A stretch of DNA of 4,227 nucleotides from a virus (Duplodnaviria; Heunggongvirae; Uroviricota; Caudoviricetes), in IMG/VR virus record IMGVR_UViG_2547132488_000021, positions 1-4,227 of that record; one strand, written 5' to 3'. The notes below the pieces were generated by a model, which saw only the letters and a program-made list of their open reading frames with translations, had not been told where the DNA came from and made no database searches. Shown one piece after another: positions 1-4,227 of this stretch. The position numbers and the translations under genes were made by a program. Positions within the stretch are counted from its first letter, which is position 1; the number at the start of each line of letters is the position of its first letter.

Positions 1-416
1 TTAGCCCCTGTGCTTTTCAAACATCCAAACAGAAATACTCCAAATTGTTTTTCAGAAGAAAATGCAGAGAGACATGTAAAAGCAATAGACTCATCAAAAA
101 TTTCTATGTATTCAGCACAGTGATTAGCCCAACTAATTAATCCTTTAATTAAACTGAAGTCAGCAAAGTTTATTTTTAAATAAGATGGATATTCCCTACA
201 ATCAGAAATATCCCTTAAGTTATTAGCTTTCAAATAGCGACTAATAAACTCAGCGCCAAAATCCGCCACTATCACTCTTTCAGGATATGTCAGGAAAAAA
301 TCTCTAGAGCTAGAGTCGACAAGTACAGATGAACCTCTCTCCAGAAACACACTCTCTTTTCCGAAATAAACATCAAAGGACTCCAAAATCAATATAACTG
401 AACATGTAGTTGCCAT
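1..416 (-). CDS. Hypothetical protein, N-terminal part only (gene continues beyond the left window edge); function unknown
   Basis: My own translation of the minus strand: ATG at 416..414, then an uninterrupted frame of about 138 codons down to position 3 with no stop (MATTCSVILILESFDVYFGKESVFLERGSSVLVDSSSRDFFLTYPERVIVADFGAEF...). The frame is open back to a stop at 468..470. An open frame this long in very AT-rich DNA is unlikely by chance. A GGGCGGA purine-rich stretch lies a few nt upstream of the ATG on the minus strand. Absent from the supplied ORF track, presumably because its stop is outside the window. No family recognised. Confidence 0.45.
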   Translation of the reverse strand, partial: MATTCSVILILESFDVYFGKESVFLERGSSVLVDSSSRDFFLTYPERVIVADFGAEFISRYLKANNLRDISDCREYPSYLKINFADFSLIKGLISWANHCAEYIEIFDESIAFTCLSAFSSEKQFGVFLFGCLKSTGA

Positions 417-997
417 ATCATCCGCCCAATTTAACTGAAACCAGGATGAAGTATATGTATATAAAGTTCACTTTGCCAAACTTCAATATAAAAAACCACT
501 AAAAATAGGGTGTGATAAAAAATACCGTAACAATAAAGCAAAGGATTATAAATTCCGTTACAGTTACAAATGATACTCAAGAAACAATTCCTTAGGAAAA
601 ACTTATTTACAGCCAATAAGTAAGACACTTATATGATATCAAGTTTTCATAAAACATAACTAGGCTAAATAGCTGCGCCTAATACCGCTACACTTTTGCC
701 AGCCCATGTTTGCCTCCGGGTATTGACCCCTTCTCTACGCAACTTCAGTTCCCACCACCAACTTTGCGGCAGCTTTGTAGGATCAATGTCTAAAAGAATA
801 ATGGTGACCGATAAGAAAACGACTGAATAACTGCAGATTTTCGCTCGAAACCTTCCTGTCAGATCCATAGCGAATCAAGTGCTGAATGTCACAGTATCGA
901 ACAGAAAACAGTGACGATCTAACCCTTCAAGAATATTCTACGATTGTTCTGTTTAGGAAAAGCAAGGCGGGAAGTCGGGAGATAAGTCATTGATAAA

Positions 998-1026
998 GTG
1001 GCGGAGAGAGGGGGATTTGCCCCCCC
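998..1026 (-). other. tRNA 3'-end-like motif: T-arm-like hairpin, 7 nt, G, CCA; possible decayed attachment-site relic
   Basis: Minus strand reads GGGGG-GGCAAAT-CCCCC-TCTCTCC-G-CCA: a 5-bp G/C stem with a 7-nt loop matching the T-loop consensus at 5 of 7 positions (GG in place of TT), then exactly 7 nt, a discriminator position and CCA at canonical tRNA spacing. No matching 5' acceptor strand or D/anticodon arms upstream, so it is at most an orphan 3' fragment. Confidence 0.3.
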
Positions 1027-1044
1027 GGTAGAGTTGCCCCTACT

Positions 1045-1061
1045 CCGGTTTTCGAGACCGG
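1045..1061. other. Second GC-rich hairpin (CCGGT-TTTCGAG-ACCGG) in the AT-rich spacer
   Basis: Perfect 5-bp stem with a 7-nt loop, 18 bp from the first hairpin. No U-run on either strand, so not a classical intrinsic terminator. Confidence 0.3.
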
Positions 1062-2014: not shown

Positions 2015-2074
2015 GTCTTTAAGTGATAAGCATAAACCGCAGCACGATCTTCTTGCATACGACGTGCTACGGTT

Positions 2075-2629
2075 TCATTTATCTCCGACCGGAAACTTCT
2101 TATACAGTGTCGATATACCAACATCATAGATGATCGCCACCTTTTGGCGAGGAACGCCTGATGCAATTAATCGCCCGGCCTGCGCCCATTGTTCTGGTGT
2201 AAGTTTGGGACGACATCCACCAATTCGTCCCTGTGCGCGAGCTGCTTCCAGTCCAGCTTTTGTTCGTTCAACAATCAGTTCACGCTCCATTTCAGCCAGG
2301 GCACCCATCACATGAAAGAAAAAGCGCCCCATTGGGGTACTGGTATCAATTGAATCCGTCAGACTACGAAAGTTGATGCCTCGTTCGCGCAACTCCTCCA
2401 CCAGCACGACAAGATGCCGCATACTGCGCCCCAGTCGGTCCAGTTTCCAGACCACCAGCGTGTCACCTGCCGATAATGTCCTGAGCAGCTTTTTCAGTCC
2501 TGGTCTGTCGGACTTTGTACCGCTTATCTTGTCTTCAAAAATCAGCTCACATCCTGCACACTCCAGCGCATTACGCTGTAATTCCGTATTCTGGTTATTT
2601 GTTGATACGCGGACATAGCCAATAAGCAT
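2075..2629 (-). CDS. pin: Serine-recombinase DNA invertase, Gin/Pin/Hin/Cin family
   Basis: Translation MLIGYVRVSTNNQNTELQRNALECAGCELIFEDKISG...GDTLVVWKLDRLGRSMRHL...INFRSLTDSIDTSTPMGRFFFHVMGALAEMERELIVERTKAGLEAARAQGRIGG...VAIIYDVGISTLYKKFP has the catalytic serine in the VRVST motif, the resolvase/invertase catalytic core, and a C-terminal helix-turn-helix. Start placed at ATG 2629..2627 (protein begins MLIGY as in known invertases) with AGGGGGA 6 nt upstream; the track's longer ORF from ATG 2665 adds 12 unconserved residues. The symbol is by family analogy, not a verified ortholog. Confidence 0.93.
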   Translation of the reverse strand: MLIGYVRVSTNNQNTELQRNALECAGCELIFEDKISGTKSDRPGLKKLLRTLSAGDTLVVWKLDRLGRSMRHLVVLVEELRERGINFRSLTDSIDTSTPMGRFFFHVMGALAEMERELIVERTKAGLEAARAQGRIGGCRPKLTPEQWAQAGRLIASGVPRQKVAIIYDVGISTLYKKFPVGDK

Positions 2630-2709
2630 GTTAAATCCCCCTGGTAAAAGCAGGAATGATGCCATTTGCTTGTTATTTCTTCATTTTCATAAACGTTGGT
2701 TTGGGAGAA
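2630..2709 (-). promoter_or_regulatory. Invertase leader: ribosome-binding site and probable promoter, overlapping the crossover site
   Basis: Minus-strand sequence upstream of the invertase ATG reads ...TATGAAAATGAAGAAATAACAAGCAAATGGCATCATTCCTGCTTTTACCAGGGGGATTTAAC-ATG. The SD is clear; the -35/-10 hexamers cannot be assigned confidently by eye. Only 54 bp separate the start codon from the crossover site, so promoter elements must overlap or lie within the site. Confidence 0.4.
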
Positions 2710-3063
2710 GCAGCAAAACGGAATGTAGGTAACGGGCAAAACCAAATTCCGGATATGGCGGCGTTTGCCAGTTCACTTTCATCAACGGGTTTTCAAAAAC
2801 TCCCTTCAGGTCTGATTATTCAGTGGGGTATTGTCAGTGGAGCATCAAACTATACGGTGACTTACCCGGTAACATTCCCAAATCGTTCACTTGCGCTGTT
2901 GGCTGTGCCACATACAACGTCGGTGGCTGGTATATCTGCAATGGGAATAGCGAACTGTTCTGATATCAGCAAATCACAGTTCTATATAATTGTTGGCGGT
3001 ATATCTCAGGGAGAAATTGTCAAATATGAAAGGTCCTGTTTTTGGGTAGCAATCGGTGTATAG
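2656..3063 (+). CDS. Tail-fibre variable C-terminal cassette, silent orientation
   Basis: Track ORF ending ...SCFWVAIGV. It shares LIIQWG and the terminal AIGV with the opposite cassette. The functional cassette begins at 2710, just inside the crossover site; the ATG at 2656 lies outside the segment in the invertase leader and is probably fortuitous. No tail-fibre N-terminal constant region is attached in this orientation. Confidence 0.65.
   Translation: MMPFACYFFIFINVGLGEAAKRNVGNGQNQIPDMAAFASSLSSTGFQKLPSGLIIQWGIVSGASNYTVTYPVTFPNRSLALLAVPHTTSVAGISAMGIANCSDISKSQFYIIVGGISQGEIVKYERSCFWVAIGV
2684..2709. repeat. Left recombination crossover site (gix/hix/cix/pix-like, 26 bp) bounding the invertible segment
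   Basis: TTTTCATAAACG-TT-GGTTTGGGAGAA: two imperfect 12-bp half-sites around a 2-bp core, with the AAAC/GGTTT inner pattern of invertase crossover sites as I recall them (for example gix TTCCTGTAAACCGAGGTTTTGGATAA). Its reverse complement starts TTCTCCCAAACCAA, which is exactly the last 14 bp of the window. Confidence 0.7.
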
Positions 3064-3071
3064 GTATATCT

Positions 3072-3467
3072 ATGATTTATTTCTCAAAATCGACTAATGG
3101 TTTTTTCTTTGATGGTATAAACAGCGACATGCCTGCTGACATTGTTGAGATAAGTACAGACTTATACAATGAATTAATTGCCGGACAGCAGGAAGGGGGT
3201 AAATTAATCACGTCAGATGAAAATGGTTTACCGGTACTGAAATCTCCGGCGATTGATTATGTCGCACGTGCTGAAAATCAGCGAATGCAGTTACTTGCTC
3301 ATGCCGATAATGTCACAGCTGACTGGCGGGTGGAGTTAATGCTTGGTGATATCAGCAGTACAGATAAAGAAAAACTATCTGCCTGGATGGACTACAAAAA
3401 AGAAGTAAAAGCCGTCGACACTTCGACGGCTCCTGAGATTAGCTGGCCTGAGTTACCGGAGGTGTAG
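3072..3467 (+). CDS. Tail-fibre assembly protein (Tfa chaperone) paired with the silent cassette
   Basis: MIYFSKSTNGFFFDG...AWMDYKKEVKAVDTSTAPEISWPELPEV: conserved Tfa C-terminal signature (VDTS-AP-I-WP--P). ATG at 3072 has AGGT 6 nt upstream; the track ORF starts at a TTG (3042) overlapping the cassette's end. It starts 9 nt after the cassette stop, consistent with co-expression. Confidence 0.85.
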   Translation: MIYFSKSTNGFFFDGINSDMPADIVEISTDLYNELIAGQQEGGKLITSDENGLPVLKSPAIDYVARAENQRMQLLAHADNVTADWRVELMLGDISSTDKEKLSAWMDYKKEVKAVDTSTAPEISWPELPEV

Positions 3468-3876
3468 GCCATTCAATATCTGGAGCACTGGAGGTATCCA
3501 CCAGTTCCAGTGCGTCCAGGTAATCCAGCCACAAATTATATTGCGCCAGTTCCTCACCTTTCAGACGACCAATAGCCGCTTTACCGGGCCATTGTTTATT
3601 GTTCATGTATTCGTTGGCCTGGTTAAGCAATAATTGCCTTTCTGATTCTGCCTGTTGAATAAGTTCTTCATGTGATGGTGGAGGTATCAGTGCCCATGTG
3701 GGTAATCCATTCTCTCCTGCAACACGAATTTTGCCATCTGGGGGCGTATTTATTGCAAATTCATTATAAACATCATCACTGACAGCCAGAGCATCATCTG
3801 GCCATGAATTTGCATTAATGTAATCATCCTTAAGTGCAGGATTCACAAAAATGTTTAAAGATGGACTATAAAACAT
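3439..3876 (-). CDS. Tail-fibre assembly protein (Tfa chaperone) paired with the cassette in the expressed orientation
   Basis: MFYSPSLNIF...EELIQQAESERQLLLNQANEYM...YNLWLDYLDALELVDTSSAPDIEWPTPPVTQAS: Tfa-family C-terminal signature. ATG at 3876..3874 with a GGGGTG SD-like motif upstream, 1 nt after the stop of the upstream cassette (3878-3880). Confidence 0.88.
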   Translation of the reverse strand: MFYSPSLNIFVNPALKDDYINANSWPDDALAVSDDVYNEFAINTPPDGKIRVAGENGLPTWALIPPPSHEELIQQAESERQLLLNQANEYMNNKQWPGKAAIGRLKGEELAQYNLWLDYLDALELVDTSSAPDIEWPTPPVTQAS

Positions 3877-3877
3877 A

Positions 3878-4227
3878 TTACACCCCTATAGCGATATAAC
3901 GACCTAATACAGCGTTTGCAGCAGTCGCTATGCTTGAAAAACCGCGGAACTGATTTGATGTAATTGCAGAAGCCGACAGGATTCCTGCGCCTGAAGGTGT
4001 ATGCCCCACATGACTAACTATCATTCCATAACATGCTGACGGAAAGGCAAAAGGAAAATCATTAAGATATCCGGCATCTTCACCACCAGACCCACCAAAT
4101 CTCGCCTGCCCCCACTGAATAATCAGTGTTCTCCGGGAACCTGAAATAATTAACGGAATCGTTACATACCCATTCAGACCAATGACACCCGATGCAGTGC
4201 CAGCCAGAGATAATTCTCCCAAACCAA
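3878..4227 (-). CDS. Tail-fibre protein, C-terminal portion (partial; gene continues beyond the right window edge)
   Basis: Minus-strand frame open from the window edge to the stop at 3878..3880; translation ...LGELSLAGTASGVIGLNGYVTIPLIISGSRRTLIIQWGQARFGG...AVLGRYIAIGV. The frame reads through the right crossover half-site as L-G-E, the same residues and phase encoded by the left site on the plus strand (2701-2709). The track's initial M is really a TTG inside the crossover site, not a start. Confidence 0.8.
   Translation of the reverse strand, partial: GLGELSLAGTASGVIGLNGYVTIPLIISGSRRTLIIQWGQARFGGSGGEDAGYLNDFPFAFPSACYGMIVSHVGHTPSGAGILSASAITSNQFRGFSSIATAANAVLGRYIAIGV

Follow-up and report, generated by a model that had tools for sequence, protein, structure and literature searches.

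A Pin-type tail-fibre inversion switch of the Escherichia coli e14 P segment type in a prophage sequence

Does the right-hand part of the 4,227-nt stretch of DNA analysed here (the window), in which two tail-fibre cassettes face each other beside a serine invertase gene, constitute an inversion switch, and which enzyme would turn it over? A preliminary description had assigned the region 2075-4227 to a well-known class of switches, had attached little novelty to it and had expected it to fix the context of the window. We found that the region is a Pin-type prophage tail-fibre inversion switch of the E. coli e14 'P segment' type, with the same crossover sites and the same constant region as e14, and both the class and the low novelty claimed for it were thus borne out. 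Switches of this kind are textbook knowledge and are routinely annotated as pinE plus tail-fibre and assembly genes. More specifically, we are confident that it is a two-site switch of the Hin/Gin/Cin/Pin family, situated at the invertase end of a temperate, e14/SfV-like E. coli prophage of the myovirus kind. The switch tells this context of the window, as had been expected, and also which fibre variant is currently 'on'.

Genes and crossover sites of the invertible segment

All five genes of the switch gave domain matches in Pfam (Table 1). The serine invertase that had been proposed on the minus strand was recognized from its Resolvase match, from its HTH_7 match, which marks the C-terminal helix-turn-helix domain, and from alignments with E. 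coli K-12 PinE (94.0% identity) and Mu Gin (PDB 3UJ3/4M6F; 141/181 residues or 78% identical, E 1e-92). The nucleophile Ser9, within MLIGYVRVST, aligned with Ser9 of Gin, and the gene is annotated as pinE in genome records identical to the window's. Translation starts at the ATG at 2629; the upstream ATG at 2665, with which the mechanical ORF begins, is not the real start. In Hin, the contacts with Fis and the enhancer are made by Arg154, Leu155 and basic helix B (PMC3798978), and the corresponding residues of the present invertase are R153/L154 and K46/K47/R50.

Table 1. Positions of the switch components and neighbouring signals in the window
Feature	Position	Strand	Remarks
Stable hairpin	2036-2073		between convergent PD-T4-3-like gene (ends 2014) and invertase gene (ends 2075)
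Serine DNA invertase gene (pin type)	2075-2629	-	184 aa + stop; Pfam Resolvase E 9e-52, HTH_7 E 5e-11
R139C codon	2213-2215	-	codon 139 is TGT (Cys); Arg in PinE, Gin and closest relatives
Candidate recombinational enhancer	2545-2607		two Fis-consensus-like 15-mers, 2593-2607 and 2545-2559, in 5' end of invertase gene
Leader of invertase-proximal cassette	2659-2709	+	MPFACYFFIFINVGLGE; identical to K-12 StfE leader
Left (invertase-proximal) crossover site, 26 bp	2684-2709		TTTTCATAAACG TT GGTTTGGGAGAA; central dinucleotide 2696-2697
Tail-fibre C-terminal cassette A	2710-3063	+	Pfam Gp53-like_C E 1.7e-15; unjoined to constant part in window orientation
Tfa chaperone gene of cassette A	3072-3467	+	131 aa; Caudo_TAP E 1.8e-24
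Intrinsic terminator (predicted)	3398-3434	-	12-bp G+C-rich stem, U-rich tail; 5 nt past minus-strand tfa stop
Tfa chaperone gene of cassette B	3439-3876	-	145 aa; Caudo_TAP E 1.7e-34
Tail-fibre C-terminal cassette B	3878-4213	-	Pfam Gp53-like_C E 1e-12
Right crossover site, inner half and central AA	4214-4227		TTCTCCCAAACC AA; window ends directly after central dinucleotide

The two alternative tail-fibre C-terminal cassettes and the two cognate Tfa genes in mirror arrangement, both of which had been claimed, were likewise recovered, since both cassettes matched Gp53-like_C and both convergent Tfa genes matched Caudo_TAP. Identity between the two cassettes was 35% across 65 aa, and between the Tfa proteins 29% across 140 aa. 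As in e14-type segments, a separate Tfa gene comes after each cassette and the two units converge; in the window the Tfa genes overlap by 29 nt. The Tfa protein of cassette A is annotated in relatives as tail fiber assembly protein WP_000639074.1, and the 218-aa fibre annotated in E. coli UPEC-245U has a C-terminus 100% identical to the cassette itself. Cassette B and its tfa gene, with stop and start 1 nt apart, are predicted to be translationally coupled. The terminator downstream of this pair (-18 kcal/mol, z -4.4), which was found by a terminator scan, would close the fibre operon in the present orientation. At the other end, the hairpin beyond the invertase gene (-24.5 kcal/mol on the minus strand and -19.8 kcal/mol on the plus strand; z -4.6 and -4.8 against shuffles) probably terminates transcription in both directions and forms the outer limit of the switch. 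A sub-threshold Rfam match to CssrB over this hairpin (2038-2097) was rejected as a family member. A consensus scan for promoters of pin or of the fibre operon gave nothing convincing.

The crossover site and inverted partner that had been described were both found. The left site and the pin-proximal site of e14 in K-12 agreed at 26/26 positions. The full right site, TTCTCCCAAACC AA GGTTTTCGAGAG at 4214-4239 in extended coordinates, was identical to the distal e14 site; its outer half was read in the public contig L009 and in the relatives L001 and L003. The two sites are inverted, imperfectly palindromic 26-bp sequences with the same central dinucleotide AA/TT (the left one seen in the window and the right one through L009). 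The inner 14 nt of the left site form a perfect inverted repeat with 4214-4227, the only such pair of sites in the window, and the unique segment is 1504 bp long (about 1.53 kb between the crossover points). Note that the motif alone is not statistically striking, as 30 out of 200 shuffled sequences gave at least two matches when three mismatches were allowed. Despite these weak statistics, the identification is settled, because the 14-nt repeat equals the repeats at which PinE, PinQ and PinR experimentally invert the e14 P segment (PMC12529663). No further pix-like sites, as expected in a multi-inversion system, were found in a search of the window, and the presence of only two sites implies only two states. 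We also weighed a 17-nt perfect inverted repeat (2812-2828 and 4110-4126) as a possible second recombination site but rejected it, since it encodes the LIIQWG motif common to both cassettes and is unlike the site consensus.

A candidate enhancer was located by a pattern scan. The midpoints of its 15-mers, 2600 and 2552, are separated by 48 bp, and about 96 bp separate the proximal 15-mer from the middle of the crossover site, which fits the spacing of about 99-100 bp reported for Hin (PMC3798978). In e14 pinE and Mu gin the DNA sequence of both 15-mers was conserved. The Fis pattern itself is degenerate (24 matches of at least 6/7 in the 646 nt scanned), so the element is to be taken as a candidate by consensus, spacing and conservation.

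The switch had been called complete, and the window ends within the right site. The contig L009, which contains the window with 4227/4227 identical positions and runs on rightward, continues with GGTTTTCGAGAG, completing the 26-bp site, then with an in-frame 97-aa constant fibre N-terminus of the e14 StfP type, and then with a ymfQ homologue and Mu-like baseplate genes (baseplate J). Thus the rest of the site and the N-terminal region of the fibre, which had been sought to the right of 4227, were both present, and completeness held for the element as seen in L009 but not for the window, whose end at 4227 excludes the outer half of that site and the constant part of the fibre.

Both cassettes share a common frame across the site (GLGE), which places the crossover inside the fibre ORF. 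In the window orientation, cassette B continues the reading frame of the constant N-terminal part, giving a 212-aa fibre (3878-4516 in extended coordinates; ORF read in L009), and the predicted 212- and 218-aa fibres matched annotated proteins of L001 and L003. The window state is therefore predicted to express the minus-strand cassette (B), and a flip would give the 218-aa fibre with cassette A. We propose that the fibre gene would be read on the minus strand from the constant 97-residue part through the right crossover site into cassette B, its chaperone gene and the terminator, while cassette A and its chaperone (2710-3467) would face the opposite way, unjoined to the constant part. The invertase would bind both 26-bp sites, and with Fis bound to the enhancer that lies within the beginning of the invertase gene itself, cleavage at the central AA/TT and strand rotation would turn over the segment of about 1.5 kb and bring cassette A, together with its chaperone gene, in frame into the place of cassette B. 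For the present switch, the Fis/enhancer mechanism is expected from its family, as is the recognition of different receptors by the two tips, which would make it the 'host-range switch' of the preliminary description.

Orientation of the segment in related genomes

The claimed second orientation was found in database assemblies. In E. coli UPEC-245U (L003), positions 1-2709 of the window were matched at 100%, and positions 2691-4227 were present in inverted orientation with 1536/1537 identical positions; the segment was likewise flipped relative to the window in L010 and L012. Junction probes against 5426 genomes showed cassette B adjoining pin in 47 and fused to the constant part in 24, and cassette A adjoining pin in 56 and fused to the constant part in 15. 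The segment thus occurs in both orientations across database assemblies, and the junctions fall exactly at the predicted crossover. Assembly breaks told the same story: contigs L013 to L016 stopped right at the outer boundary of the 14-bp repeat, and L015 (1532 bp, from four samples) consisted of exactly the segment and both repeats, as expected if the reads hold both orientations. Such segments fragment short-read assemblies precisely at the 14-bp repeat, and otherwise near-identical prophages exchange cassette pairs.

Short-read assemblers can mis-join at repeats and the perfect inverted repeat is just 14 nt long, so we considered whether the flipped copies could be assembly artefacts, or the mirror arrangement a static duplication without any switch. 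However, the flipped state was present in complete long-read-level genomes, the flips occurred in several independent strains and with several cassette pairs, and the junctions coincided with the central dinucleotide of sites identical to the experimentally validated e14 sites. We regard the absence of a switch as practically inconceivable, and as far as database evidence goes it is refuted.

The sister isolates 22-250 and 22-245 (L020 and L021) had 100% identical flanks and differed in nothing but the inverted segment. In both, about 140 nt remain of the neighbouring invertase gene, and the difference in orientation despite this truncation implies inversion in trans. The candidate enhancer was kept in the truncated remnant of these strains, which still show inversion.

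As for the surroundings, UPEC-245U carries a sister prophage of about 37 kb that runs from integrase to pin and appears complete. The gene beyond the invertase is a PD-T4-3-type GIY-YIG defence gene, and comparison with relatives shows positions 1-416 (minus strand) of the window to be the beginning of a gene for an AraC-family regulator. PADLOC gave no match on the window. No tRNA was found by ARAGORN; a tRNA-like stretch near 1000, outside the switch, is a 3' fragment of serU, and an Rfam plastid UTR family that matched over it below threshold was rejected as a family member.

The R139C allele and the invertase-proximal ORF

The main reservation about the invertase concerns codon 139. Arg was present at this position in every close relative translated (L001, L002 and L004) as well as in Gin and PinE, and Cys139 is the sole difference from the invertases of L001 and L004. 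The arm motif is accordingly GGCRP in place of GGRRP (PinE) or GGRPP (Gin), and the conserved Gly-Arg of the arm is lacking. The allele is rare: of the 1059 E. coli records that matched a 61-mer with the Cys codon, 3 contained it exactly, while 1055 of the others fell in the 95-99% identity band, all of those among the matches listed at 98.4%, that is, with one mismatch. From an alignment with 1HCR and the numbering of Hin, we take position 139 to be Hin Arg140 (Gin Arg139), in the arm that binds the minor groove. Feng et al. in 1994 and Sluka et al. in 1990 are said to have found the arm arginine of Hin important for this binding.

A substitution at this conserved arm suggests that inversion may depend partly on invertases acting in trans. 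In its strong form, this reading holds that R139C has crippled the invertase of an otherwise structurally intact switch, so that the segment is locked or flipped only in trans by a PinQ, PinR or PinE homologue of other prophages. The position and rarity of the allele are in its favour, and so are the differing segments beside the invertase remnant in 22-250 and 22-245. Inversion of e14-type segments in trans has been documented (PMC12529663), and related invertases elsewhere in the genome can perform it. However, carriers of the same allele were found in both orientations (the window and L009 versus L003, L010 and L012), which indicates that inversion continued after the allele arose, whichever enzyme was responsible. 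In addition, R140, directly after Cys139, might partly substitute, and the protein is otherwise intact, with its catalytic and Fis-contact residues preserved. We consider a crippled invertase possible but doubtful. R139C changes a single residue of an invertase that is in all else typical of the family, and it would lower confidence in the activity of the invertase, not in its ancestry. The rare arm substitution offers a natural test of the weight of the cis invertase where several interchangeable invertases share one genome.

The cassette facing the invertase may not be silent. The leader MPFACYFFIFINVGLGE provides cassette A with an ATG-started ORF (2659-3063, 134 aa), and an ORF of this kind is present whichever way the segment lies (134 or 128 aa). 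For e14, Kirigo et al. (2025) described the invertase-proximal product StfE2 and a block of T2 adsorption (PMC12529663), for which receptor masking was proposed. By extension, the element could serve the host instead of, or besides, the phage: the leader joined to the facing cassette would make a small protein of the fibre tip, by which outer-membrane receptors are masked and superinfecting phages blocked, and inversion would toggle this defence. The identity of leader and site with those of K-12 StfE and the PD-T4-3-type gene adjoining the switch agree with this idea. Against it, the leader overlaps the crossover site and the upstream region of the invertase gene, whose conservation explains that of the leader; AGGA lies 0 to 3 nt from the ATGs, a poor Shine-Dalgarno spacing; the consensus scan revealed no promoter-like site, and PADLOC was equally negative for the window; and the cassettes are unlike those of e14. 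Moreover, the apparently complete prophage in the sister genome means that a phage function suffices. A role in host defence is therefore unlikely in our opinion. Very unlikely is the combined scenario, by analogy with e14 StfE2, in which the lysogen would make the ORF of the 'silent' cassette for receptor masking, beside the PD-T4-3 gene, while R139C would leave flipping to the invertases of other prophages. We retain the reading as a tail-fibre switch of the phage.

Comparison with known inversion systems

The closest system is the P segment of K-12 e14 (stfP-tfaP / tfaE-stfE-pinE). Besides the 94% identical invertase and the two identical 26-bp sites, the two elements share the constant fibre N-terminus (StfP residues ~1-101), the upstream ymfQ homologue, the invertase-proximal leader ORF, and the order of constant part, cassette with tfa, reversed tfa with cassette, and invertase. 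The cassettes, in contrast, are not orthologous to those of StfP and StfE, and the same scaffold carries other alleles: cassette B was 36% identical to the StfP C-terminus (74 aa), and cassette A had no significant match with either K-12 e14 cassette. The Tfa proteins were 32-48% identical to those of e14, with 48% between that of cassette B and TfaP. The unique segment measures 1504 bp against 1797 bp in e14; mcrA lies beyond the e14 invertase, in the place of the GIY-YIG gene here; the prophage appears complete in the sister genome, whereas e14 is a 15-kb remnant in K-12; and R139C is particular to the present invertase.

The Mu G segment with Gin and the P1 C segment with Cin have serine invertases of the same Fis/enhancer-dependent family (78% identity to Gin) and follow the same logic, with a constant Sc part and alternative Sv/U and Sv'/U' cassettes. 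There too the invertase gene adjoins the segment, and the enhancer region in the 5' end of the gene is conserved at the DNA level. The Mu segment is larger (about 3 kb, with S of 504 aa) than the present one, whose fibres of 212 and 218 aa end in gp53-like tips, and the gix half-site is TTCCTGTAAACC instead of TTCTCCCAAACC.

The Hin/hix flagellar switch of Salmonella involves the same recombinase family and, presumably, the same invertasome mechanism. Its distance of about 100 bp from the site to the proximal Fis site is matched by the candidate in the window, and R154/L155 and basic helix B of Hin are conserved in the present invertase. In Hin, however, a promoter is flipped and not coding cassettes, and there is no tail-fibre context.

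Shufflons use a tyrosine recombinase. In both the Min system of plasmid p15B and the shufflons, as here, site-specific inversion joins alternative C-terminal cassettes to a constant part; these are multiple-inversion systems, whereas the element in the window has two sites and therefore two states.

Gene organisation and crossover sites

Six-frame ORF analysis and Pfam scans of the region 2075-4227 found five genes, which bore out the parts named in the preliminary description: a serine invertase, two cassettes for alternative tail-fibre C-termini and two Tfa genes in mirror arrangement. The two cassette/Tfa units are convergent with a 29-nt overlap, and their products share 35% identity over 65 aa (fibre tips) and 29% over 140 aa (Tfa proteins); the units are true alternatives, not copies. 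A 17-nt perfect inverted repeat within both cassettes, CTGATTATTCAGTGGGG, codes for their common LIIQWG motif; such DNA identity is surprising in cassettes otherwise so diverged as proteins, and the repeat could be a point of homologous exchange between them.

Features of the window and its extension in contig L009 (window coordinates)
Feature	Position	Strand	Evidence or remark
AraC-family regulator gene	1-416	-	window begins within it
Similarity to lambdoid phages	1-1060		98.5-98.8%
serU 3' fragment	~997-1063	-
GIY-YIG protein, 257 aa	1241-2014	+	PADLOC PD-T4-3, full length, E 4.5e-140; Pfam LEM-3_GIY-YIG
Serine recombinase, 184 aa	2075-2629	-	Resolvase E 9e-52, HTH_7 E 5e-11
Cys139 codon (TGT)	2213-2215	-
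Fis-consensus-like 15-mers	centres 2600 and 2552
Left 26-bp crossover site	2684-2709		TTTTCATAAACG TT GGTTTGGGAGAA
Perfect 14-nt inverted repeat	2696-2709, 4214-4227		repeat finder
Cassette A, gp53-like tail-fibre C-terminal domain	2710-3063	+	Pfam, short ORF segment
17-nt inverted repeat	2812-2828, 4110-4126
Tfa gene after cassette A	3072-3467	+	Caudo_TAP (tail-fibre assembly)
Intrinsic terminator	3434-3398	-	-18 kcal/mol, z -4.4
Tfa gene after cassette B, 145 aa	3439-3876	-	Caudo_TAP
Cassette B, gp53-like tail-fibre C-terminal domain	3878-4213	-	Pfam, short ORF segment
Right crossover site, whole in L009	4214-4239		TTCTCCCAAACC AA GGTTTTCGAGAG
Fibre ORF, 212 aa	reaches 4516 (L009)	-
ymfQ homologue	4520-5104 (L009)

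A crossover site with an inverted partner had also been proposed. The left copy of the 14-nt repeat forms a 26-bp site with its surroundings, and the right copy is represented in the window by the inner half-site and the central AA. The outer half was read in contig L009 (Logan assembly of SRR27430355, 7760 bp), which was found through look-up of the 145-aa Tfa protein, holds the entire window (4227/4227 identity) and extends past its right end. Beyond the completed site, as had been anticipated, lies the constant fibre N-terminus, 97 residues joined to cassette B across GLGE, followed by the ymfQ homologue. A shuffle test of the site motif alone was unimpressive, and its significance therefore comes from identity to known sites: both 26-bp sites recur without any difference in e14, the cryptic prophage of K-12, where Kirigo et al. 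2025 (PMC12529663) showed by experiment that the P segment of 1797 bp is inverted at the repeats (TTGGTTTGGGAGAAGG / CCTTCTCCCAAACCAA) by PinE, PinQ and PinR. There were no further sites in the window when up to 3 mismatches were allowed, indicating a two-state switch.

Following Kirigo et al., the invertase-proximal ORF, whose leader MPFACYFFIFINVGLGE is identical to K-12 StfE, might have a host-defence role, but we regard this as unlikely, because the leader overlaps the conserved crossover site, the ribosome-binding spacing is poor, a scan found no promoter and PADLOC gave no hit.

Inversion of the segment in related genomes

Since cassettes A and B share one reading frame with respect to the site, simulated inversion yielded an uninterrupted 218-aa fibre, and E. 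coli UPEC-245U has exactly this predicted product as its annotated fibre. The UPEC-245U locus matches the window at 100% over 1-2709 and, reversed, at 1536/1537 positions over 2691-4227, and an artificial flipped-junction probe matched it at 600/600. Contigs L010 and L012 are in the same flipped state, and a second cassette pair behaves likewise (loci L001 and L004, ~99.8% identical with the segment inverted). Junction probes run over 5426 complete E. coli genomes placed cassette B beside the invertase in 47 cases and fused to the constant part in 24; the counts for cassette A were 56 and 15. The clearest case is that of the chicken-meat isolates 22-250 and 22-245 from one study: the stretch between the sites has opposite orientations in the two, and their flanks show 100% identity over 2295 and 3803 nt. 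The predicted occurrence of both orientations was thus observed, and these comparisons exclude a static duplication or assembly artefact, to which we assign a negligible probability.

In several independent short-read assemblies, contigs (L013-L016) stop precisely at the outer boundary of the 14-nt repeat, and one of them (L015, 1532 bp, from four samples) is exactly the segment with both repeats, the output expected of a de Bruijn assembler when both orientations are among the reads. The right end of the window, 4227, is the last base of the repeat, in the central AA of the crossover site, and is the very base at which these contigs begin or end. This coincidence suggests that mixed orientations in the sequenced culture broke the contig that forms the window, the left junction having nonetheless been assembled through.

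Invertase, candidate enhancer and the Cys139 allele

In the Hin system, invertase dimers on the sites and Fis dimers on an enhancer form an invertasome on supercoiled DNA, and an AT-rich TAATG element is mentioned (PMC3798978). The 5' end of the invertase gene here contains two Fis-consensus-like 15-mers with a centre-to-centre distance of 48 bp, the nearer one 96 bp away from the crossover, and with TAATG between them; both are conserved in the DNA of pinE and gin. Fis-contact residues are also kept (R153/L154 and K46/K47/R50, for Hin R154/L155 and basic helix B). Consensus, spacing and conservation argue for this 5' end as a candidate enhancer. By analogy with the family, an invertasome of this composition would assemble here on both sites and the enhancer; Ser9 would cut the central dinucleotide, and the subunits would then rotate by 180 degrees and so invert the segment.

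The intrinsic terminator, a strong one, lies right behind the stop of the cassette B tfa and ends the fibre operon in the present orientation, and no equivalent lies behind the cassette A tfa (3468-3500, +). We speculate that in the flipped state fibre-operon transcription could continue across the reversed cassette, pass the left site and enter the same-direction invertase gene, so that invertase expression might depend on segment orientation.

The invertase differs from its closest relatives (L001, L004) only by Cys139 for Arg, the arm motif being GGCRP, against GGRRP in PinE and GGRPP in Gin. By the 1HCR alignment, this position corresponds to Hin Arg140, which is reported to lie in the minor groove and to be required for site binding (Feng et al. 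1994; Sluka et al. 1990). Cys139 thus replaces an Arg seen in both PinE and Gin, and the exact 61-mer with its codon occurs in only 3/1059 matching E. coli records, so that the enzyme may be crippled and the switch trans-dependent or locked. We consider this possible but rather doubtful, because the allele is found with both orientations (window and L009 versus UPEC-245U, L010 and L012) and inversion therefore went on after it arose, although other invertases may have carried it out. In 22-250 and 22-245 (L020/L021, locus ~2072-3823), the same cassette pair is flipped despite an invertase gene truncated to its first ~140 nt, and inversion there must come in trans; the remnant retains the candidate enhancer and is followed by a DUF262 gene.

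One of the three carriers, E. coli Z1323HEC0423 (L005, 3892-4446 and 5803-6549), combines the allele with a different 5' gene part and very different cassettes, suggesting that pin has recombined internally or that the CGT-to-TGT change is a recurrent one. Its fibre gene is annotated 'integrase', probably a mis-annotation.

Prophage setting and comparison with e14

In complete genomes of relatives, the remainder of a Mu-like contractile tail module was present (baseplate J, gp46, gp45/V, DNA circularisation protein, tape measure, tube and sheath). An apparently complete ~37 kb prophage, with the element at its end, is present in E. coli UPEC-245U/190328; it has an integrase beside tRNA-Thr/proA and an e14-like repressor region (ymfK, ymfT, ymfL).

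At the left of the window, the serU fragment covers this tRNA-Ser(CGA) from its anticodon stem through the CCA end and takes in a further 9 nt of the downstream flank, with two T-loop mismatches; ARAGORN found no tRNA there and Rfam gave only a sub-threshold antisense hit. The fragment is probably an attachment-site relic. Similarity to the lambdoid phages PhiR70_1, ev099 and mEp332 ends at it, indicating that two different mobile elements abut there; the AraC-family regulator gene (WP_000246059.1 in relatives) is also an accessory gene in lambdoid phages.

The GIY-YIG gene adjoining the invertase is of the type of PD-T4-3, a single-gene anti-phage system, and holds the slot that the restriction gene mcrA occupies beside pinE in e14. 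Such prophages thus seem to keep a place for defence genes at their invertase-distal end.

The invertase shares 94.0% identity with PinE of e14 and matches Mu Gin (PDB 3UJ3, 4M6F) at 141/181 residues (E 1e-92), in agreement with the proposed Gin/Pin-type membership. The constant fibre part is the N-terminus of e14 StfP, whereas the cassettes are other alleles: cassette B shares 36% identity with the StfP tip, neither of the K-12 cassettes matches cassette A significantly, and the Tfa proteins are 32-48% identical to K-12 Tfa. The few genomes opened have at least five cassette types in this slot, as would fit the modular exchange of fibre tips that has long been known. The preliminary description was correct both in what it observed and in how it interpreted it. 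As it held in assigning little novelty to a well-known class, this tail-fibre inversion switch of the e14/Pin type, whose cassette alleles are uncharacterised, is already known and annotated in identical public genomes.
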